The position numbers and the translations under genes were made by a program. A DNA stretch of 53,624 nt. Source: an uncultured Candidatus Saccharibacteria bacterium (lineage in GTDB: Bacteria; Patescibacteriota; Minisyncoccia; Phycocordibacterales; Phycocordibacteraceae). Of the stretch, positions 26,217-51,048 are shown one piece after another (the stretch's first letter is position 1; every line of letters begins with the position of its first letter). A model generated the notes under the pieces. That model did not search any database and had not been told where the DNA came from. It saw only the letters and a list, made by a program, of their open reading frames with translations. Where the stretch lies: assembly GCA_964518755.1 (NCBI GenBank), contig CAZFHH010000002.1:6796-60419 (forward strand). Reading direction: 5' to 3'.

Positions 26217-26552
26217 TTATTTTGAAATAATATCCCGTGTCTTTGTAACGGAGCGCCCAAAGCGGTCGGTAACCGTTACTTGCAGTATATCCTCCCCCCG
26301 CGCAAATACGAAGGTTCTTTTGAAGGAGCCATCTTCATTGGGGAGCACTGCAAGCCCATTTATGGCAAGTGCGTTCACGCGTGCCACCTTACCGGAAACG
26401 GTTACAAAACCGTTTCCGGTAACCGCACCTTGCACAGGCGAAATCAAAGAAAGCCCGGGGCCTTCAATAAGCGCGTGTCCCTCCCAAAAACCATATACAA
26501 TTGCGGAAACCACCACCACAAGAAAAAATGTTCTAAACAGTGAGAACGTCAT
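26217..26552 (-). CDS. small membrane-anchored Ig-like protein
   Basis: N-terminal TM helix and beta-rich domain; overlaps the ftsK stop. Confidence 0.75.
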   Translation of the reverse strand: MTFSLFRTFFLVVVVSAIVYGFWEGHALIEGPGLSLISPVQGAVTGNGFVTVSGKVARVNALAINGLAVLPNEDGSFKRTFVFARGEDILQVTVTDRFGRSVTKTRDIISK

Positions 26553-28840
26553 ATCTCATCTTTTTCCTCATCGTCATCGGAGAGGGTATTGTCAGCATCG
26601 GCACTTGCACTGTTCTCGGTTTGTGACAATATCTGTCGCGGGCGTGAGCCGTCTGCCTCGCCGATGATGCCTTTCTCTTCAAGTATGTCCATGAGTCGCG
26701 CCGCACGCGAATAACCGATACGTAGCTTACGTTGCAAATATGAAGTGGACGCTCTCCCGGCCTCTTCAATCGCAGTTCTTGCTTCGCCGTAGAGATCATC
26801 TTCCACATCATCCTCCTCATTGGCAAGAAGTATTGCATCATTCGGTTCGGTACTGCTTTTCCCATTTTCAGACAGCTCCAGAGAAACCAAATCGCCGGAG
26901 TTATGCTTTTTAATATACTGCACGGTCTTTTTTACTTCTGTTTCGCTTATAAATGCCATTTGAATACGTACCGGTTTTTGCATGTCTGCTGAAAGATAGA
27001 GCATGTCGCCTGAGCCAAGCAACATCTCTGCCCCCGCACTGTCAAGAATAGTGCGCGAATCAATTTGCGAGGCAACTTGAAGTGCCATGCGCGTCGGCAC
27101 GTTTGCTTTGATGAGTCCGGTAATAACGTTCACCGACGGTCGCTGTGTGGAAAGAATCAAATGTATACCAACGGCACGGCTCATTTGCGCCAAGCGCACA
27201 ACTGATGCCTCAAGTTCGCGCGGATAGCTTTGCATAATGTCTGCGAGCTCATCAATGACAATTACAATGTAGGGCATCGCCTCTGGTATGTTCGTGCGAT
27301 TGTCTTCCGGCACACCTTTTTGTTTTTCCTCCTCATTTCGTTTGCGCGCAGGCTCCAAAATTGTTTGATGGTATGATTCCACGTCGCGCACATGTTCGGA
27401 TTCCAGTATATTGTAACGGCGCTCCATTTCTTTCCCCGCCCACTTCAATGCAACGATTGTTTTCTTTGCATCGGTAATGACGGGCGTAAGCAGGTGGGGG
27501 ATACCGTTATATAGTGTGAGCTCCACGCGCTTCGGGTCAACCATAATGAAGCGCAATTGGTTTGGCCCGTTTCTGTATAGCAGGGAAGTGACAATTGCAT
27601 GGATTGCTACTGACTTTCCCGAGCCCGTGGCCCCGGCAACAAGTACGTGAGGAGCCTTGGCGAGATTTATATAATGTGGGGCGCCGGCAATGTCGCGTCC
27701 AAGTGCCACCAAAAGCGGTTTGTTACTTTCTTGCCATTTTGAAGCGGTAAGCAGACCGCAAAGCCCGACGGTTGCCTTGAGTGTATTTGGTACCTCAATA
27801 CCAACAAGTGATTTCCCGGGAATTGGGGCTTCAATGCGAACCGGATGTGCTGCAAGCGCAAGTTCCAAATTGTTTTGCAACGAGATAATTTTTGAAAGGC
27901 GCACCCCTTCCGCCGGTTTAAATGCGTAACGCGTTACGGTCGGACCAACCGACACCTCATCCATTTCAACCGAGATGCCAAAATTTTGGAATGTGCGTTT
28001 TATTATATTCGCATTTGCCTTGATATCCCCGACGCCTGGCTTTCCTTTGTCGTTTTCAAGTATGTGTATGTCCGGCGGGTTGTATGTCGCATCAAAATTA
28101 ACAATCGCATTTGTAGAGCTTCCGTCTGCGCGAATAAGTGAGTTTTGGTCAAACCTGTTTATGGTAGGCTCACGTTCCGTGTTGATTTTTTTTGTATCCT
28201 CTTCGTCTGCGCCCTCTTCCTCATCGGTGTCTTCATTTTCGTAGTCCGCCTCCTCATCTTCTTCGCGCTTGTCATCTTCCACGTCATCCTCCTCGTTGCC
28301 ATATTCTCTTCCTTCGTGAGGGTATTTTATTTTCGCACGCACGGTCCTATATATATATGAGAAGAGAGTCAGCGTGCTTGCAAACAACATCTCCACATCA
28401 ATGACAGCGGCAAGTGCGATAAGTACCAGCGCAAGCAGGAGAATAAGTGCTCCCCAAAAACCAAAAAATGTTTCAAGCGAACCTCCTATAAGCGTGCCAA
28501 ATTGTCCGCCGAGCGCTGATGAAGAAAAAAGTCCGGCAAACGAAAGTACCGAAGCGAGAAGTAGGGTTGACCCGCCTGCGACCATCGGAGTGATAACCGG
28601 TTTTTTGAAACCGGCGTATATGCCGAGCATGATAATGGCAAATGGCAATATAAATGCACCAAGCCCAATTGCTCCGTAAGAAGCAATAAATGCCGCTGAA
28701 CCGATTGGTCCGGATGCTCCAACCGCCCCAAGAAAAAGCACCACTCCAATGGCGATAAGCACAACCGCAGACACCCAATTGATAGCATCTTCGTAATCGC
28801 TTATTGAGCGAGCTCGCTTACTCTTTTTCTTACGCGCCAT
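26549..28840 (-). CDS. ftsK: DNA translocase FtsK
   Basis: N-terminal TMs, AGATGSGKS, DPKRVEL, IDELADIM, gamma domain LQRKLRIGYSRAAR. Confidence 0.98.
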   Translation of the reverse strand: MARKKKSKRARSISDYEDAINWVSAVVLIAIGVVLFLGAVGASGPIGSAAFIASYGAIGLGAFILPFAIIMLGIYAGFKKPVITPMVAGGSTLLLASVLSFAGLFSSSALGGQFGTLIGGSLETFFGFWGALILLLALVLIALAAVIDVEMLFASTLTLFSYIYRTVRAKIKYPHEGREYGNEEDDVEDDKREEDEEADYENEDTDEEEGADEEDTKKINTEREPTINRFDQNSLIRADGSSTNAIVNFDATYNPPDIHILENDKGKPGVGDIKANANIIKRTFQNFGISVEMDEVSVGPTVTRYAFKPAEGVRLSKIISLQNNLELALAAHPVRIEAPIPGKSLVGIEVPNTLKATVGLCGLLTASKWQESNKPLLVALGRDIAGAPHYINLAKAPHVLVAGATGSGKSVAIHAIVTSLLYRNGPNQLRFIMVDPKRVELTLYNGIPHLLTPVITDAKKTIVALKWAGKEMERRYNILESEHVRDVESYHQTILEPARKRNEEEKQKGVPEDNRTNIPEAMPYIVIVIDELADIMQSYPRELEASVVRLAQMSRAVGIHLILSTQRPSVNVITGLIKANVPTRMALQVASQIDSRTILDSAGAEMLLGSGDMLYLSADMQKPVRIQMAFISETEVKKTVQYIKKHNSGDLVSLELSENGKSSTEPNDAILLANEEDDVEDDLYGEARTAIEEAGRASTSYLQRKLRIGYSRAARLMDILEEKGIIGEADGSRPRQILSQTENSASADADNTLSDDDEEKDEI

Positions 28841-28904: not shown

Positions 28905-28943
28905 TATCACCTGTGCGCAGGCAACGCCTGCACACAGGTGATA
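28905..28943. repeat. palindrome, 18-bp arms
   Basis: TATCACCTGTGCGCAGGC-AAC-GCCTGCACACAGGTGATA, one mismatch. Confidence 0.9.
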
Positions 28944-28947
28944 TACC

Positions 28948-28976
28948 TTGCATTCTTCGTCTTAAGGACATACAAT
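28948..28976 (+). promoter_or_regulatory. promoter TTGCAT-17-TACAAT with an AAGGACA box in the spacer
   Basis: Consensus spacing upstream of ORF 29005. Confidence 0.65.
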
Positions 28977-29004
28977 AATGGACACGTACGCATGAAATAT
29001 CTTT

Positions 29005-29769
29005 ATGAACTATAAAAGACAGTATAAAGGACAACAAGACAACACCCTCTCCACGCGTTCAGAGTTTAATGATTTTGTTCTAAAGAAAGATATATTTTCA
29101 GGCATATTTGATAAGGACATACGGCGGGTATTTATTTACAAAAAAGCGGAGCGTCTTGCCAAAGCAATCCATCTCATCACCCCGGCATTTCAAAGTGCCC
29201 CCGCCCTGCGCGACCGTGCCGACACAATCGCCATTGGCATGATTGATACGGCAATACTTTTTTCCGCTTCTTCCAAGGATGCGTTAGCTCGCGAACTTTT
29301 GGCGCTTTCAAGTGTGTTGTCAATCGCTCGCACAAGCGGAATGCTTTCGGTAATGAATGCGGAACTAATAGAGCGCGAGGCGCAAATGCTTTTGCAGGAA
29401 GTCGCCACATATGAAGAGCCGAATATCTCTCTGGAAGAGGAGCAGTCTTTCGCGCAGTTGCTGAAAAAATCATCTTCCTCTGCCTTGGCACGCTCCGGCG
29501 CTGAGCGTGTTACCTCACACGCGCCTTCGCGCGTACGCACGAGCACGAAAAGTATTCCAAAAGGACAGGGTAATATAAAGGACAGCCGAAAAGAGGCAAT
29601 ACTTTCAATAATACGTGCTAAAGGACATGTTTACATAAAGGACATATCAATCGCCATTCGTGACGTAAGCGAGAAAACAATTCAGCGCGAGCTTGCCAAT
29701 TTTGTTTCAAAGGGGATTTTGATTCGTACCGGCAATCGCAGATGGACATCATACGCTTTGGCACAATAG
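29005..29769 (+). CDS. protein with helical-bundle N-domain and C-terminal DeoR-like winged HTH
   Basis: RKEAILSII..IKDIS..VSEKTIQREL..GILIRTGNRRWTSY. Confidence 0.85.
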   Translation: MNYKRQYKGQQDNTLSTRSEFNDFVLKKDIFSGIFDKDIRRVFIYKKAERLAKAIHLITPAFQSAPALRDRADTIAIGMIDTAILFSASSKDALARELLALSSVLSIARTSGMLSVMNAELIEREAQMLLQEVATYEEPNISLEEEQSFAQLLKKSSSSALARSGAERVTSHAPSRVRTSTKSIPKGQGNIKDSRKEAILSIIRAKGHVYIKDISIAIRDVSEKTIQRELANFVSKGILIRTGNRRWTSYALAQ

Positions 29770-29785
29770 GGAATTGATTAAACCA

Positions 29786-29823
29786 AAACACGCTCCGCGC
29801 CGGTAACGGCGCGGAGCGTGTTT
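29786..29823. repeat. perfect palindrome, 17-bp arms, possible terminator
   Basis: AAACACGCTCCGCGCCG-GTAA-CGGCGCGGAGCGTGTTT. Confidence 0.92.
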
Positions 29824-30139
29824 ATACCGGCGCCCGGGCAAGTTATCAATACGGAAATCTATCACCGAAAATGCAATGTGTATGAGTATTCGTTTCCATC
29901 AAACCAACACGTCCTAAAATGTCCTTTATGTATGCACTACCATACTTGCGTTTTAACTAAATGCACATTGTCAGCTGCCCAAGATTTGTACCCCCCCCCT
30001 CCCCCTCCAATCAATTGACCATATCATCATATTTTGATACACTTAACGACAGTGATGACGATGCTTGAGGCGCACACACCATACACACACAGATAGACCG
30101 TAAAACGGTTTTTTTGTGCATTTTGGTGTGTGGGGCTCG

Positions 30140-30148
30140 TTATCCACA
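30140..30148 (+). promoter_or_regulatory. consensus DnaA box TTATCCACA
   Basis: Exact match about 45 bp upstream of TATACT at 30191; further intergenic copies at 40812 and 44076. Confidence 0.45.
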
Positions 30149-30735
30149 TGTGTTACCTTGCAGAGGTTTTTCATTTATGTCACTTACCGCTATACTATAT
30201 ATTAGTCCCTGGTGGAAAGATGCGGGCGTAAAGAAATTTCTACAGGGGGGTGGTCTTTAACAAAACAAAAGAGTATTGCACACAACATATTTCGTCGCCC
30301 GCGAAAGAGTGTGCGATACATTTTATATAGCAACTTTAGACCGGTTGCAAAACGCGTCTTAACGGTCCTTGGATAGCATTCGTGAATGTAGCATTATATA
30401 TGTCACATTCTTTTATGCGTACACAAGGATACCGTGCGGTTTTTCTGTTATCGCGCAAGACGTGGTTACCTTATCAACAGAGGCAGTGTGAAAAGATACT
30501 TCAACAACGATTGCATGACGGCACGGATGGAAACCTTACCAGCTAACCCATGGAAAGCAGATCGATTCGCTCTCTGTGGGATTAGTGAATGGAAACATCA
30601 GAAACAAAACACAACACAAAACACATTGTGAAAACAATGTATTACCAATGTAAATAAATCTGTGTATGCGCACCACATTAATACCTTTAACAATTATCGG
30701 TGTCGCACACACGGTCTAAAAACTTAACAAAACAT

Positions 30736-33700
30736 ATGACTACTTCAGTAACTAACAATATGGTTGTAAAAGTTGTAGCGGCAGTTGCGGGAATCGCGAT
30801 GGTAGCTTCAATGGCGTTTGCATTTGCCCCTGCGGCAAAAGCGGAAACGACAGCACAGCTCCAAGCGCAAATCTCGTCACTCATGGCAACGATTCAATCA
30901 CTCCAAGCACAGCTCAGTACTGTGCAAGGAAGTTCTTCATCTGCAAGCACAAGTAACACAAGCACAGCCTATACTTTCACAAGAAATCTTACTATCGGAA
31001 GTAAAGGCGCTGACGTTACCGCTTTGCAGAATTATCTGACTACGGGCGGTTACTTCACCTATGCGGGTGGATCAACCGGATACTTCGGTCCCGTAACACG
31101 AAAGGCGGTCGCCGCATGGCAAGCAGCCAATGGCGTCACTCCGGCAGTCGGTTACTTCGGTCCGCTCTCTCGCGCTGAATACGCGAGTTTGACAGCGGCA
31201 ACAGCAACCAACACCGGCACAACAAGCACAACCGGAACTACAAGTACCACCGGCACAACCGGGACGGTAGCAACCGGCAACGGTCTGCAGGTAGCGCTTG
31301 CTGCGACGTCTCCAAGTAAAACAGCAATCGTTCAAGGACAGGGAATTGCAAACTTGGCTGAATTCACATTCACCAACCCAACATCCTCTGCCGTAGCGGT
31401 AAACAGTTTGTCATTCAAGCGCGTTGGTGTTTCCAATGACTCAACAATGACAAATGTATACCTCTATAACGGAGTAACGCCGATCACCGATTCAGCGGGT
31501 GTTACGAACTCACAATTCTCGTTTAACAACACAGCAGGAATCTTTACGGTACCTGCAGGTGGAAGTTACACGGTAACGGTGCGTTCTGATATCGCGGGGA
31601 ATACTGCTGGTCAGCAGATCGGTGTAGAGCTCACAGCGGTCGGTTCAAACGGTACGCTTGATTCAAGTGTTTCGCTTCCGATTATAAGTGGTCTGCAAGC
31701 GATTTCTTCAGCAACATTGGCAACGGTAGACTTCTCAGGAACAACACTTCCTACGACAAACGGAAGTGTGAACCCAACCAGCGACTATGTCGTATGGCAA
31801 AACAGTGTTTCAGTTTCCACCAATCCTGTGAAGCTTGAATCATTGACGTTCACAAACTTGGGCTCGGTAAGTAGCAACGCCTTGCAAAACATCCGCCTTT
31901 ATGTGGATGGTACGCAAGTCGGAAACTCACTTGCAAATCTTGGAACAAGTCGCACAATAACATTTAATCTTTCGGCAAATCCGGTAACTCTTTCAACGTC
32001 TAACCACATCATCAAGGTTGTGGCAAATGTTGTTGGTGGTTCCAGCCGAACATTTGAGTTGTCGTTGCAGCGTACATCAGCCTCAATGTTTGTAGACACG
32101 CAACTTGGTCAGCCGGTTGTTCCGACTGTGTCAGGTAATAGCTTCTCAGCAGTAAGCTCTGGAGTTCAGACTGTTGCATCAGTGAGTGCAACCAGTGGCG
32201 TATCTGTAAACAAGGCATCTGTCTCACCAACAAATGATCTTCCAGTTGGAGCAACAAACGTAAAACTTGCATCTTTTAACTTGCTTGCTTCCGGTGAGGC
32301 GGTAAAAGTGAATGACCTTTACGTGTACGCGGTAACATCACCAAATGCCGGTGGTCTTTCCAACGGTAAGATTATGGTAAATGGTGTACAGATTGGTTCA
32401 ACAAAAAACGTCGGTGAAGGGGTGGCAAATGCAACCGACTTTAACCTCGGCTCATCACTTATCATTCCTGCAGGCAAGACTATATCTGTTGATGTCTATG
32501 CAGATACCAAAACATCAACGTCAACGAATATTACAGGTACTATCCAGGTAGGACTGAAGGGAAGTGTGTCAAACGCACAAGGTCAGTCATCACTTAATTC
32601 CACGAATGTTCCATCAGCGAACATCACAGGGAATAGCTTGACTGTATCTGCAGCGACAATCGGTGTGTCATCATTCTCCGGTTATGGAAATCAAACCATG
32701 CTTCCGGGGACAAGTGATGCACTTCTCGGATCCTTCACGCTTTCAGCGGGTTCAACCGAGGGGGTAAATGTCAACACAATCGCACTTGATTTGGCAGGAA
32801 ATGGTGGAGTTACAAACTTGATGCTCAAGGATCACAACACTGGAGCACAGATTGGCTCAACCATTAACACGCCATCGGCAACAGGAAATACGTTCTCAAC
32901 GAACTTTACGATTCCTGCGTCAGGTACGAAGGTTGTTGATGTCTATGGAAACATTACGTCTTCAGCGACTACTGCAATTGCTGCAACAGTTCAAACTGCA
33001 ACATCCGGAACAGGATTGGTTACTAACAATTCTGTGAGTGTTTCCGGCTCTCAAGCATTGCAAACCATTACTGTTGGCTCAGGAAGTCTTACGGTCGCTC
33101 TTGGAGCAAGTAATCCTTCCAAGGCAAATGTGATTGCAGGTACAGCGGGTGTTCCTGTAGCGGACTATCAGTTCACTGCACAGAACACACCATATACAGT
33201 TCAGAAACTTGAGCTTACAGTTCCTGCTGCAAGCGCGGTTGACAGTGTGAATGTTAGTTACCCGACAAAGACAGGAACGGCAACTGCGGTAGCGTATCTT
33301 CAGGGAACAACGGCGACATTCTCAGGTCTTACAATGTACGTACCACAAAACGGCACGGCTGACTTGAACGTTTCTGTTAAAACACCAACTATTTCAGCTG
33401 GTGCAACCTCTGGAACTAAGATATCTACAACGCTTGCTACAACTGGATTCCAGGCAACTGACTCAGCAGGAAATCAGACCACCACGATTTCATCTGCTGT
33501 AAACAGTGTAAATGGATCGTATGGAGAAATGGTTCTTCGCAAGACAATCCCGACATTCGCCGGCTCAAGCTTCGCGTCTTCCATAAATCCTGCGGGCCAA
33601 GACCTTTACAAGTTCACAGTTTCTGCGGACTCTGCAGGTCAGGTGAGTGTTGACAAGCTATCGTTTAAGATTGCAACATCTTCTATCTCGACAACCTCTC

Positions 33701-34095
33701 CTTTTACGGCAACAGGCTTTACGCTTTATGACGTAACGAGTGGTTCAGCGGTAGCGGTAGTGGCATCAACAACACCAGTTGTAAATGCCAGTGGTGTCCT
33801 TTCATTTGTTCCTGCTACGCCGATTGAAGTTGGCGCCGACAGCACAAAGACGTTCACGCTTCGCGCGGGAACCATTAGTGGCTGGGCAGCAGGTGCAAGC
33901 ATCAGTGTGAATTTTGCTCCGGCAGATGCAGCGTATGCAACAAATGGTACGGCGTATTCTTCCGCCGCTGGTACTGGTAGCTATACATGGTCTGATGACT
34001 CAACGATTCCACACTCAGTAAATTCATCTGACTGGACAAACGGTTACCTTCTTAAGGACATGATTGATGGAACTTACAGTTACACACACTCATAA
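30736..34095 (+). CDS. large secreted S-layer-like protein with peptidoglycan-binding domain
   Basis: Signal peptide, LQAQISSLMATIQSLQAQL coil, PG_binding_1 pattern LTIGSKGADVTALQ..GYFGPVTRKAVAAWQ, then Ser/Thr-rich beta domains. Confidence 0.88.
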   Translation: MTTSVTNNMVVKVVAAVAGIAMVASMAFAFAPAAKAETTAQLQAQISSLMATIQSLQAQLSTVQGSSSSASTSNTSTAYTFTRNLTIGSKGADVTALQNYLTTGGYFTYAGGSTGYFGPVTRKAVAAWQAANGVTPAVGYFGPLSRAEYASLTAATATNTGTTSTTGTTSTTGTTGTVATGNGLQVALAATSPSKTAIVQGQGIANLAEFTFTNPTSSAVAVNSLSFKRVGVSNDSTMTNVYLYNGVTPITDSAGVTNSQFSFNNTAGIFTVPAGGSYTVTVRSDIAGNTAGQQIGVELTAVGSNGTLDSSVSLPIISGLQAISSATLATVDFSGTTLPTTNGSVNPTSDYVVWQNSVSVSTNPVKLESLTFTNLGSVSSNALQNIRLYVDGTQVGNSLANLGTSRTITFNLSANPVTLSTSNHIIKVVANVVGGSSRTFELSLQRTSASMFVDTQLGQPVVPTVSGNSFSAVSSGVQTVASVSATSGVSVNKASVSPTNDLPVGATNVKLASFNLLASGEAVKVNDLYVYAVTSPNAGGLSNGKIMVNGVQIGSTKNVGEGVANATDFNLGSSLIIPAGKTISVDVYADTKTSTSTNITGTIQVGLKGSVSNAQGQSSLNSTNVPSANITGNSLTVSAATIGVSSFSGYGNQTMLPGTSDALLGSFTLSAGSTEGVNVNTIALDLAGNGGVTNLMLKDHNTGAQIGSTINTPSATGNTFSTNFTIPASGTKVVDVYGNITSSATTAIAATVQTATSGTGLVTNNSVSVSGSQALQTITVGSGSLTVALGASNPSKANVIAGTAGVPVADYQFTAQNTPYTVQKLELTVPAASAVDSVNVSYPTKTGTATAVAYLQGTTATFSGLTMYVPQNGTADLNVSVKTPTISAGATSGTKISTTLATTGFQATDSAGNQTTTISSAVNSVNGSYGEMVLRKTIPTFAGSSFASSINPAGQDLYKFTVSADSAGQVSVDKLSFKIATSSISTTSPFTATGFTLYDVTSGSAVAVVASTTPVVNASGVLSFVPATPIEVGADSTKTFTLRAGTISGWAAGASISVNFAPADAAYATNGTAYSSAAGTGSYTWSDDSTIPHSVNSSDWTNGYLLKDMIDGTYSYTHS

Positions 34096-34288: not shown

Positions 34289-34426
34289 GTTAATGGGGTC
34301 AGGAGCCATTTATTTATTTCACGAAAGGTCGGGCTTTCCATATACTGTTGGGAAAAATATCGGACATCCGATGTCCGATATTTAGATGTCCGATATTTAC
34401 TGTTAATGGCTCCTGACCCCATTAAC
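34289..34426. repeat. REP/REPIN-like element: 22-bp inverted repeats enclosing an internal palindrome
   Basis: GTTAATGGGGTCAGGAGCCATT (34289-34310) and its complement (34405-34426); internal AAATATCGGACATC-C-GATGTCCGATATTT with one arm duplicated. Confidence 0.8.
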
Positions 34427-48819: not shown

Positions 48820-51048
48820 ATGACGCGCCACATGTTAAAAAGGGTTGAAATTACAGGCTTTAAATCTTTTGCAAAAAAGACGACACTTGATTTCTCATCA
48901 AGTGTTACATCTATTGTCGGACCGAACGGCTCCGGGAAATCAAATGTTGCCGAGGCATTTCGTTTTGCGCTTGGTGAGCAATCAATGAAAAATATGCGCG
49001 GTAAGCGAAGCGAGGATCTTATCTTTAATGGTTCGCCAACGACACCGCGCACCAATCGCGCGGCGGTTGCGATTATTTTTGATAATACATCGCGCGTGTT
49101 TAATCTTGATTTTGACGAGGTTCGCGTAGAGCGCGCCGTATTTCGCGACGGGACGAGTGAATATACGATTAACGATTCAAAAGTACGCCTGCGCGATATC
49201 CATGAATTACTTTCAAATGCCAACATTGGTGAGAGTGGGCACCACATCATCGCTCAGGGCGAGGCGGATAGAATTTTGCTCGCCAATGCACGACAAAGAA
49301 GAGAGATGCTTGAAGATGCGCTCGGGCTTGCGTCATACGAATTCAAAAAAAATGAGGCACAACGCAAGCTTGAAAGAACGCGCGAAAACATTAGGCAAGT
49401 TGATGCCTTGCGCAGAGAACTTTCCCCACATGTTCACTTTCTTCAAAGGCAGGTTGAGAAGCTGGAGCGTGCGGATGCAACGCGCGATGAGTTGAGCACA
49501 TTGGGTGCAACATACTTTGCGATTGAAGATGCGTATATCGCTCTGGAGACAGAAACCGCCACTATCGCACTCGCTTCCGCAAAAGAAAAGCTCGCCGTAC
49601 TTTCGTCAGAACTCTCCGCGTTGTCTGTAGCGGTTGATAAAGATGATGAAGGCGAGAGCTGTGCGAGAGCTGTGCGTACTGCAGAAGAGACGCTTGAAAA
49701 AATAACCGCGACACACAATGCTCTTGTAAGAGAGATGGGTAGAACAGAGGGTGCACTTGGTGCGATGCAAGATAGAGAAAAATCACTTGGCGATGATCCG
49801 TGTGTACGCATTGCTCGTGATGATATTTCAATGCTGTTTGATGAAGTGCAAGAACGAGCATCGGAAGCGCTTGATGGAGACGCGTCAAAACTGCGCGTCG
49901 CTCTTGTTTCCGTTCGCACGATAGTAAAATCATTTTTTGAACGGTTTGGTTCTACAACTGAAACAGAGATGTTGCTTGACGATAATGAGCAAAAACTTCA
50001 CGCACTTGAGCAACAAAAGGCGATACGAGAACAAGAAGAAATTGCTCTTGGTGGTGAGGTTGAAAAATCGCGTAATGCGGTATTGCGAGCGCGCGAAATA
50101 TATTCCGCGCATGAAGAAGCTGGTAGGGAAGGACAACGGAGAAGCATTGCTCTTGCACAACAAGAGGCTCATGCTCAAGCGTCAGTGATGCAACAGGAAA
50201 CACGATTGGACGCGGTATCAAAGCGCAGTGAAAGATGCGAACATGACAAGGCGGGACTGCTTGCGTTGGTGGGACCTTCCGCTGTTTCGTATGAGCCGCG
50301 CACAGAGGTGTCGCAGGAAGAATATGCAGAGCAAGACAATCGCTCGCGCTCCATTGAAAGATTCAAAATTCGTTTGGAAGAATTAGGTGGCACCGGCGAA
50401 GATATTCGCAAAGAGTATAAAGATGTATCACAGCGTGAAAATTTCCTCACCACAGAACTTGAGGACCTTTCACATTCTGCCGATATTTTGCATACACTCA
50501 TTGATGAGATTGATGGTGAGGTTGCGAAAAATTTTGCCGATGGGCTGGAGCACGTGAATGAATCATTCAGCGCTTTCTTTTCTCTTATGTTTGGGGGAGG
50601 GTCCGCACGGCTTATTCTTGAAGAAGATGATGTTACGGACGACGACGATGAGAATGAGAGTAATTTTGATAGTGCAACAGGGAACAAAAAGCCAGGGGTT
50701 GAAGTGGTGGTGCACATTCCAAGAAAGCGCGTGCAGTCACTTTTGCAACTTTCAGGTGGTGAGAGGGCGTTGGCATCTATCGCACTTATTTTTGCAATGA
50801 GCCAAGTGAACCCTCCGCCATTTTTGATATTGGACGAAACGGATGCAGCGCTTGATGAGGCGAACAGCAGGAGATATGGCGACATGATAGAAAATCTTTC
50901 CAAAAAATCACAGCTCATTGTCATCACACACAACCGCGAGACCATGAGCCGTGCTGGTATTTTGTATGGAGTTACGATGCACGGTGACGGCACATCAAAA
51001 CTGCTTTCCGTTAAGTTTGATGATGCGATTACTGTTGCAAAACGATAG
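48820..51048 (+). CDS. smc: short SMC-family ATPase (742 aa)
   Basis: GFKSFA, GPNGSGKSN, LSGGE, ILDETDAALDEAN, ITHN; follows rnc. Confidence 0.9.
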   Translation: MTRHMLKRVEITGFKSFAKKTTLDFSSSVTSIVGPNGSGKSNVAEAFRFALGEQSMKNMRGKRSEDLIFNGSPTTPRTNRAAVAIIFDNTSRVFNLDFDEVRVERAVFRDGTSEYTINDSKVRLRDIHELLSNANIGESGHHIIAQGEADRILLANARQRREMLEDALGLASYEFKKNEAQRKLERTRENIRQVDALRRELSPHVHFLQRQVEKLERADATRDELSTLGATYFAIEDAYIALETETATIALASAKEKLAVLSSELSALSVAVDKDDEGESCARAVRTAEETLEKITATHNALVREMGRTEGALGAMQDREKSLGDDPCVRIARDDISMLFDEVQERASEALDGDASKLRVALVSVRTIVKSFFERFGSTTETEMLLDDNEQKLHALEQQKAIREQEEIALGGEVEKSRNAVLRAREIYSAHEEAGREGQRRSIALAQQEAHAQASVMQQETRLDAVSKRSERCEHDKAGLLALVGPSAVSYEPRTEVSQEEYAEQDNRSRSIERFKIRLEELGGTGEDIRKEYKDVSQRENFLTTELEDLSHSADILHTLIDEIDGEVAKNFADGLEHVNESFSAFFSLMFGGGSARLILEEDDVTDDDDENESNFDSATGNKKPGVEVVVHIPRKRVQSLLQLSGGERALASIALIFAMSQVNPPPFLILDETDAALDEANSRRYGDMIENLSKKSQLIVITHNRETMSRAGILYGVTMHGDGTSKLLSVKFDDAITVAKR

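Follow-up and report, generated by a model that had tools for sequence, protein, structure and literature searches.

A winged-helix gene studded with AAGGACA beside ftsK

The window analyzed here is the whole stretch of 53,624 nucleotides (nt) taken from contig CAZFHH010000002.1 of an uncultured Candidatus Saccharibacteria bacterium (assembly GCA_964518755.1, 672,743 bp, referred to as G000). Near its middle lies a gene for a 254-amino-acid protein with a winged helix-turn-helix (wHTH) domain, diverging from ftsK across a shared 164-bp intergenic region and carrying in and around its coding sequence an array of the heptamer AAGGACA. We describe the array, its conservation and the encoded protein, and argue that the array is most plausibly an operator for the gene's own product. 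The features of the locus are given below. The motif copies were read directly from the sequence, with orthologs as additional evidence for the copy at 29113; ftsK was taken from the open reading frame (ORF) list, and the wHTH gene was defined by the ORF list, a profile search, an alignment and a structure model.

28948-28976, + strand: putative promoter of the wHTH gene, with TTGCAT (28948-28953), a 17-nt spacer and TACAAT (28971-28976)
28964-28970, + strand: AAGGACA copy 1, in untranscribed promoter-spacer DNA, touching the -10
28978-28984, + strand: near-match ATGGACA, at about the transcription start
29005-29769, + strand: wHTH gene, 254-amino-acid protein
29015-29041, + strand: 5' cluster in codons 4-13, with AAAGACA at 29015, AAGGACA at 29027 and AAGACA at 29036
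29113-29119, + strand: AAGGACA within the codons of a conserved K-D-I-R-R
29561-29644, + strand: linker-region array, with AAGGACA at 29561 and 29578 (disordered linker) and at 29621 and 29638 (start of the wHTH domain)
29742-29748, + strand: near-match ATGGACA in wing codons
29920-29926, - strand: inverted copy ATAAAGGACAT, 150 bp past the stop
29786-29823, strand undefined: GC-rich, terminator-like inverted repeat 3' of the stop (the scan lists 29801-29787 on the - strand)
26549-28840, - strand: ftsK, first gene of the ftsK-orf111-recA string

A first-pass annotation of the window had reported eight AAGGACA copies in less than 1 kb together with near-matches, and all of these were found where it had placed them: seven exact copies on the + strand, six of them inside the 254-codon ORF, and one on the - strand. 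Four of the copies are prolonged to ATAAAGGACA. The two pairs that it had singled out are indeed spaced by exactly 17 bp and read in different frames, 29561/29578 as K-G-Q and (I)K-D-S and 29621/29638 as K-G-H and (I)K-D-I, and copy 1 directly precedes the hexamer TACAAT. A strict promoter scan did not return the TTGCAT/TACAAT pair because its -35 matches the consensus at only three of six positions. Downstream copies such as that at 29920 are sporadic among relatives and do not form a conserved part of the array.

The clustering exceeds chance, as the annotation had also claimed. The window contains 15 copies of AAGGACA, compared with 6.0 ± 2.4 in shuffled sequences, and none of 100 shuffles reached 15. 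Genome-wide, G000 has 80 copies (0.119/kb), which is close to the prediction from base composition, and the word is thus not generally enriched. The densest 1-kb stretch of the genome is the wHTH locus with its 8 copies, the next separate locus having 3. With a Poisson P value of 9e-13, the cluster ranks seventh among those of all 7-mers in G000; it is outranked by poly-C, by a CG word that overlaps itself, by a coding repeat arranged in tandem where contig C8 ends and by a family of palindromic hairpins. The contig end C8:1-400, outside the window, contains this tandem repeat with its YNTTG-type units, which explains several of the top 7-mer clusters.

Some other repeats and short elements were seen along the way. 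The perfect palindrome ATATCGGACATCSGATGTCCGATAT, dispersed in 30 copies over G000 (e.g., around window position 34362, C2:41157), shares GGACAT with the array word; its 17-mer core occurs 27 times in G000, 3 times in the relative G013 and not at all in 29 other relatives, and looks REP- or terminator-like. We considered the palindrome as a part of the module and rejected it as lineage-specific. Another family of palindromic hairpins, AAAGGGGTC..GACCCCTTT, is clustered outside the window at C1:15130-15260 of G000, upstream of an AbrB-like/Doc-like gene pair, with further copies at C1:8689, 9435, 14115, 57364 and 61814. In the intergenic region between ftsK and the wHTH gene, a near-perfect inverted repeat of 39 bp (ATCACCTGTGCGCAGGC..GCCTGCACACAGGTGAT, 28906-28944) is absent from the closest relative, L085, and an upstream ORF of seven codons (ATGAAATATCTTTATGAACTATAA, 28993-29016), overlapping the wHTH start codon, is identical in it.

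The array is conserved at the nucleotide level

We studied the array at 24 loci of relatives, in 80 further species (L085-L164) and, at the level of the class, in 11 homologs adjacent to ftsK and 29 homologs that are not. In the 80-species set, five over-long ORF calls were kept in the density count and dropped from the codon and promoter counts. Among the 24 loci, some of which come from different families within the order and have protein identities of 25-38%, 22 had at least three AAGGACA copies in the gene and the 300 bp on either side of it, the maximum being 15; of the distant loci, L020 has 9 copies and L022 has 15. In the 80 species, the gene with 150 bp on either side had a density of 4.28/kb (382 copies over 89,335 bp) and the flanking sequence one of 0.131/kb (53 copies over 405,947 bp), and every locus had at least one copy and 78 of the 80 at least three. 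The orthologous loci have thus clearly kept the cluster, whose loss in them the first-pass annotation had named as a refutation of its idea. At the class level, all 11 ftsK-adjacent homologs carried an array of the core word, GGACA having a density of 8.0/kb in the gene versus 0.78/kb in the flanks, and the difference was smaller in the 29 nonadjacent ones (4.05/kb versus 1.79/kb). The array module covaries with adjacency to ftsK.

The conserved word is 9 bp long, TA-NN-GGACA (in the window (A)TAAAGGACA(T)), with the site logo (A)T-A-AAGGACA-(T), and its flanks vary by lineage while the GGACA/AGACA core is kept (TAAAGGACA, AATGGACA, AACGGACA, TATAGGACA and AAAAGACA). Across the 80 species the copies peak at -100 to +200 and at +500 to +700 relative to the gene, and in more than 100 species the word is concentrated at three places: around the -10, the transcription start and the first codons; singly, some 110 to 160 bp into the gene (+110 to +160); and, in two to five copies, from +500 to +700, where the DNA encodes the disordered linker between the domains and the first helix of the wHTH. 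Covariation of the motif variants with recognition-helix residues was only anecdotal, consisting of a K-S/AATGGACA pairing in one family.

In the protein alignment, the N-terminal tail and the linker are unconserved except for two recurrent islands, K-G-[HQ] and I-K-D, both of them translations of the word in different frames. K-G-[HQ] was written AAAGGACA in 109 of 117 cases within the gene and in none of 9 in flanking ORFs, the expectation from background codon use being approximately 5% (AAA 0.26 × GGA 0.18), and I-K-D was written ATAAAGGAC in 82 of 145 cases and in none of 10, respectively. At the conserved K-D-I site, corresponding to the copy at 29113 and compared in 68 orthologs, Asp was encoded by GAC in 68/68 (background 54%) and Ile by ATA in 56/66 (background 12%); the first Ile of the conserved wHTH I-K-D-I site was likewise ATA in 56/67 (background 12%). 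The motif has therefore been retained at synonymous sites in the orthologs. Near-fixed codon choice and the use of two frames imply a constraint on the nucleotides and not on the peptide, and by this comparison of sequences selection acts on the nucleic acid.

Promoter overlap and spacing favor duplex DNA

A putative promoter of the form TTGnnn-N16-18-TAnAnT was found within 110 bp of the ATG in 55 of 73 loci, and 46 of these have a GGACA-type half-site directly beside the -10, on its upstream side in 18, as in the window, on its downstream side in 31, and on both sides in 3, where it makes an inverted repeat round the -10. In noncoding flanks the word occurs in both orientations and in inverted pairs (e.g., L020, L022, L024 and window position 29920). 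The distances between neighboring copies peak at 11-12 bp (33 pairs), 23-24 bp (15), 33 bp (6), 44 bp (4) and 57 bp (17), giving a period of approximately 11.5 bp, and the frame-compatible distances of 8, 14, 17, 20 and 21 are rarer. The untranscribed copies, the two orientations and the helical spacing favor a word that acts as duplex DNA. In the commonest class of orthologs (e.g., L099, L107 and L115), the ATG follows the -10 by only 12-13 nt, and the mRNAs of this class are thus probably leaderless or nearly so.

The protein combines an Avd-like bundle with a winged helix

The 254-residue protein consists of a variable N-terminal tail (1-27), a four-helix bundle (approximately 39-135), a further helix (143-161), a disordered linker (165-187) and a winged helix (191-252). 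Some 50 flexible residues tether the bundle to the winged helix. An AlphaFold2 model built with 54 homologs had a mean pLDDT (predicted local distance difference test) of 79, with low confidence in the N-terminal tail, and placed the bundle helices at 39-62, 66-84, 88-111 and 116-135, with the fifth at 143-161. Pfam recognized HTH_DeoR (PF08220) at residues 195-242 with 24 bits against a cut-off of 21. This domain is C-terminal here and N-terminal in DeoR-family regulators, and no DeoR sugar- or effector-binding domain was found in Pfam or NCBIfam scans at E ≤ 1; the annotation's description of a DeoR-like wHTH lacking the sugar-binding domain was thus accurate. NCBIfam gave nothing above its cut-offs. 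For residues 1-190 both collections were silent apart from a subthreshold ScpA match, and no Avd/IVS (intervening sequence) profile matched.

In a search of representative structures with residues 35-140, the best four matches were 2rld_A (Z 16.4), 2gsc_A (15.2), 8ub7_B (14.2) and 4dwl_A (13.7). Of these, 2rld and 2gsc are bundle proteins of the 23S-rRNA-IVS or "S23" type, and 8ub7_B and 4dwl are Avd, a protein of diversity-generating retroelements (DGRs). These Avd/IVS alignments span 99-111 residues, and generic bundles reach Z ≤ 12.8, so the margin is modest. Foldseek ranked 2rld_C at E 0.039 and returned no match reaching E ≤ 0.001, and a sequence search of the PDB with the protein gave nothing below E 0.07. 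The best matches all fall in the Avd/IVS class, in agreement, at the level of fold, with the earlier suggestion of an IVP/Avd-like helical bundle. The fold neighbors of the wHTH domain include the DNA-bound repressors MecI/BlaI, ROK, ArsR and Fur, and the recognition helix and wing contain 7 of the 10 residues invariant in the family (K224, Q227, R228, G243, R246, W247 and Y250). By its modeled fold, the protein is an Avd/IVP-like four-helix bundle joined through a flexible linker to a winged helix, and it is neither a DeoR-family sugar regulator nor ScpA.

The kleisin ScpA was considered on account of the subthreshold Pfam match and because G000 has SMC and ScpB and no other ScpA-like match. 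SMC_ScpA scored only 19.5-19.9 bits against a cut-off of 24.6, and 27 of 31 related genomes have, besides this gene, a canonical ScpA at another position (e.g., G017:254629), so the candidate was rejected; the missing canonical ScpA of G000, though relatives have one, is probably an assembly gap. The open frame of the SMC gene in the window (48832-50997, C2:55627-57792) is only about 750 codons long.

The protein is widespread. Database relatives at E ≤ 0.001 numbered 2,120 and were named only "DeoR/ArsR family" or "hypothetical," and its ESM Atlas neighbors were all clusters of "hypothetical protein." It was present in 27 of 31 sampled relatives and in 71 of a set of 151 genomes of the class, and at least 573 species-level genomes labeled Kaiserbacteria, Paceibacterota or Parcubacteria encode it.

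Genomic context and the question of an origin

The divergent neighborhood of ftsK was found in 76 of the 80 loci, the other 4 being without upstream DNA. On the - strand of the window ftsK is followed by a 111-codon ORF and recA. These three genes form a small island: 40 of the 46 ORFs of the window are on the + strand, on both sides of the locus, so that gene orientation does not switch there. G017, a relative with a complete genome of 993,452 bp, has its cumulative GC-skew minimum at 778 kb and maximum at 254 kb; its dnaA is at 781,965, and the sole cluster of DnaA boxes (5 per kb) is at 782.9-783.9 kb. The wHTH gene is at 871,823, approximately 90 kb from dnaA or about 9% of the chromosome; in G003, the distance between the two genes is 86 kb. 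The origin role that the first-pass annotation had entertained, and for which it had proposed a check of GC skew, does not agree with these positions, and together with the uniform gene orientation they rule out a main replication origin at the wHTH locus.

The DnaA box that had been noticed near the locus is real. It lies at 30140-30148 (TTATCCACA, + orientation), about 370 bp past the wHTH stop, and in the form (G)TTATCCACA (30139-30148) it was present, perfect and in + orientation, at 78 of 78 loci with downstream DNA among L085-L164, 11-318 bp past the stop and mostly at 100-160 bp. In a 28-row alignment the only invariant blocks were this box and, 31-42 nt beyond it, a TATACT (window 30191-30196). 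The box belongs to a separate, predicted promoter downstream of the gene. We consider it probably an activator- or repressor-type DnaA site, the promoter, as predicted from sequence, driving a long leader and a large peptidoglycan-binding surface protein (30736-34095). A conserved promoter-like TTGACy-N17-TAnnnT (30015-30043) lies between the wHTH gene and the box and is followed by a GC hairpin and T-run resembling a terminator (30095-30118), alignable in 28 loci; the element 30015-30118 is a candidate for a small RNA of approximately 65 nt or an attenuator. Neither the DnaA-box nor the candidate-RNA features include conserved copies of the array word. Rfam gave nothing in the window at gathering scores and nothing credible at E ≤ 1-5 round the locus or in four relatives, and no tRNA or tmRNA genes were found in the window.

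A predicted cooperative self-repressor

Our best explanation, to which we assign a probability of roughly 0.55, is that the 254-residue protein recognizes specific DNA sites and, by binding cooperatively to the embedded operator array, represses the gene that encodes it. In this model, the winged helix would contact GGACA through the major groove, its wing reading the TA step, and the bundle would oligomerize, allowing the tethered winged helices to fill sites on one face of the DNA, as the spacings of 11-12, 23-24, 33, 44 and 57 bp suggest. Occupied sites at the -10 and the start would block RNA polymerase, and the intragenic array may raise the local concentration of the protein, form a loop with the promoter or serve as a roadblock, giving a sharp negative feedback. 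We infer binding by the gene's own product because the cluster is linked to the gene: G000 has no other, it ranks first in the complete genome of G017, and it accompanies the gene in more than 100 species. Most of the invariant residues of the family, moreover, fall in the recognition helix and wing. The operator-like word also overlaps the gene's own putative core promoter, AAGGACA abutting TACAAT. Other clusters of the consensus type, of AAGGACA or TA..GGACA, were not found in G000 or G017, and a genome-wide scan for a site next to a -10 found a good context only at the gene's own promoter. Sites of G017 at 724-726 kb and 74.5 kb were considered as members of a regulon and discarded, as they look like chance or the coding of conserved peptides. 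Of the readings offered by the first-pass annotation, autoregulation by predicted binding is the best supported.

Several observations weigh against this explanation or limit it. Copies on the + strand dominate the coding sequence (295 versus 26 in bins 0-700 of the 80 species), which a role at the RNA level would also explain; the excess can come from coding constraints, because the reverse word reads as tripeptides of hydrophobic residues and ATAAAGGACA has a TAA in one of its frames. Many of the - strand promoter copies take the form of TATACT abutted by GTCC, and TATACTGTC is also found at other promoters of G017, so part of the signal on the downstream side may be ordinary promoter context. 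The sites are approximately 90 bp from the putative -10 of ftsK and not on it, which leaves direct control of ftsK possible but not indicated. Finally, a regulator with itself as the only clustered target lacks an evident purpose, and autoregulation alone is probably an incomplete account. With no other clustered target in two whole genomes, the output is probably exerted at the locus itself, on the divergent ftsK-orf111-recA, or via a partner of the bundle.

As a regulator of itself alone makes little sense, we keep a minor share of our confidence for the idea that the nucleoprotein complex itself is the product and autoregulation its by-product. Gene and array might then descend from a Rep/Par-type module, or be its analogue, carried on the chromosome. 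There would be one array, centromere-like or serving in anchoring or titration, in the tenth of the chromosome nearest the origin, and on its phased sites an oligomeric Avd-like/wHTH protein would build a nucleoprotein body beside ftsK for chromosome handling or cell-cycle timing, together with the DnaA-box promoter and the small transcription unit. ParB, with a parS in the gene that encodes it, provides the analogy. Anchoring, titration, handcuffing or control of ftsK-recA are conceivable modes of action, at about 9% of the chromosome from oriC. The self-contained nature of the module, with the sole cluster in G000 and the top one in G017, would fit, as would the conserved distance to dnaA (86-90 kb in G003 and G017), the synteny with ftsK at 76 of 76 informative loci and the many phased sites, more than a simple operator needs; but G000 has canonical ParB, SMC and ScpB, the gene has no neighbor coding for a partner ATPase, and there is just one small cluster, whose half-sites overlap the -10 as in ordinary repressors. 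Somewhat less probable is that the word acts in the mRNA, a repeated AUAAAGGACA with its Shine-Dalgarno-like AAGGA being bound by the protein or the ribosome in control of translation or stability. The strong + strand bias within the coding sequence speaks for this, as do copies at Shine-Dalgarno distance from the ATG in some orthologs (L019, L020 and L004) and the RNA binders among the fold neighbors of both domains, Avd in the DGR ribonucleoprotein 8ub7 and the winged helix of SelB. An mRNA element does not account for copies in untranscribed promoter spacers, here and at 18 of 55 promoters, for - strand copies and inverted pairs in the flanks, or for the helical-repeat spacing, and many of the mRNAs appear near-leaderless, with 12-13 nt from -10 to ATG in the commonest class.

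We regard it as improbable that another, unlinked DNA-binding protein reads the word and regulates the gene. No single residue pattern linked to the motif core is conserved as widely as the core itself, and binding by the gene's own product is only inferred; yet such a factor would have one gene as its sole clustered target in two whole genomes, and in more than 100 species the array goes with the gene, the two changing together by lineage. Still more doubtful is an iteron-type replication element, i.e., a secondary origin or a copy-control (handcuffing) site of a domesticated replicon. Its attraction is an anatomy like that of plasmid pSK41, with four Rep boxes in the center of rep, a linker encoded by the origin and an oligomeric wHTH binder (PMC5703833), and the perfect DnaA box downstream of the gene, about 370 bp away here and present at 78 of 78 loci. 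Against it, the skew minimum (778 kb), dnaA (782 kb) and the DnaA-box cluster of G017 coincide, with the gene at 872 kb; genes on both sides run in the same direction (40 of 46 window ORFs on +); Pfam and NCBIfam scans found neither RepA_N nor another Rep domain (Rep_3 and the like); the DnaA box is 31-42 nt upstream of an invariant -10, i.e., within a promoter; and an AT-rich unwinding region is not evident. As for a by-product of a repeated peptide (KGQ/IKD) or chance, the linker is rich in K, G and D and two copies fall on conserved residues (KDIRR and IKDIS), but the two frames, the near-fixed synonymous codons, the noncoding copies and the Poisson P value of 9e-13 leave next to no room for it, and we consider both explanations excluded by the codon and noncoding data.

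If the self-repressor model holds, the locus is unusual in that the regulator carries its operators within its own reading frame, where they have shaped its tail and linker. It would be a clean natural case of a motif dictating the codon choice, and even the amino acid sequence, of the protein that probably reads it; such an overlap of codes has been documented for plasmid and phage replication genes and not for a core chromosomal gene. The Parcubacteria/Paceibacteria are uncultured and have very few regulators, almost none of them with a known site, and the locus offers a specific and testable protein-DNA pair. The putative control module is conserved across the class beside the division and repair genes ftsK and recA, and the analysis also flags an invariant DnaA-box promoter before the gene of a major surface protein.

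Comparison with known systems

Searches of open-access full text returned no description of this family or array, and AAGGACA was not found together with Parcubacteria. The first-pass annotation had likened sites inside the gene of their own binder to plasmid Rep proteins, and a precise anatomical precedent exists in the Rep boxes of pSK41: four boxes lie centrally in rep of this RepA_N plasmid, in the DNA for a dispensable interdomain linker, and Rep has a winged HTH and oligomerizes (PMC5703833). The wHTH locus resembles this system in having sites central in the gene, in linker-coding DNA, and a presumed winged-HTH binder. Unlike pSK41, however, it is chromosomal, vertically inherited, in fixed synteny and not at an origin; no RepA_N domain was found in the protein, its DNA-binding domain is C-terminal whereas that of pSK41 Rep is N-terminal, and there are extra sites on the -10.

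In phage lambda, the iterons of ori-lambda bound by the O protein are inside the O gene itself, at the junction of its two domains; the wHTH gene, in contrast, is not a phage gene, has no replication role by its position and is unrelated in sequence. Looping between a promoter operator and one or more operators hundreds of bp downstream in a coding region is seen with lac O2, gal OI and E. coli DeoR, the last of which shares the DeoR-type wHTH. Here, however, 4-10 phased direct copies are found in the regulator's own gene, the protein has no effector domain, and no other regulon was found. B. subtilis spo0J, encoding ParB, has a parS site inside its own coding sequence and is origin-proximal. 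The wHTH protein has no ParB domain and its locus is single, and PF02195 matches only a different gene of G000 (C10:5555-5857).

Similar in the form of its sites is CtsR, which binds nonpalindromic, heptamer-type direct repeats about one helical turn apart and combines a winged helix with a four-helix bundle; the P2 C repressor, to whose sites the repeats of the array can be likened, is also reportedly a binder of direct repeats. Unlike in CtsR, the order of the domains is reversed in the wHTH protein, the sites are mostly intragenic, and no sequence relationship was detected. Avd is a homo-pentamer; in contrast to Avd and the IVS proteins, the bundle is here fused to a wHTH domain and has no reverse transcriptase or DGR context. 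Family membership fails on the defining domains, and by these analogies the resemblance to known systems is one of build and not of descent.

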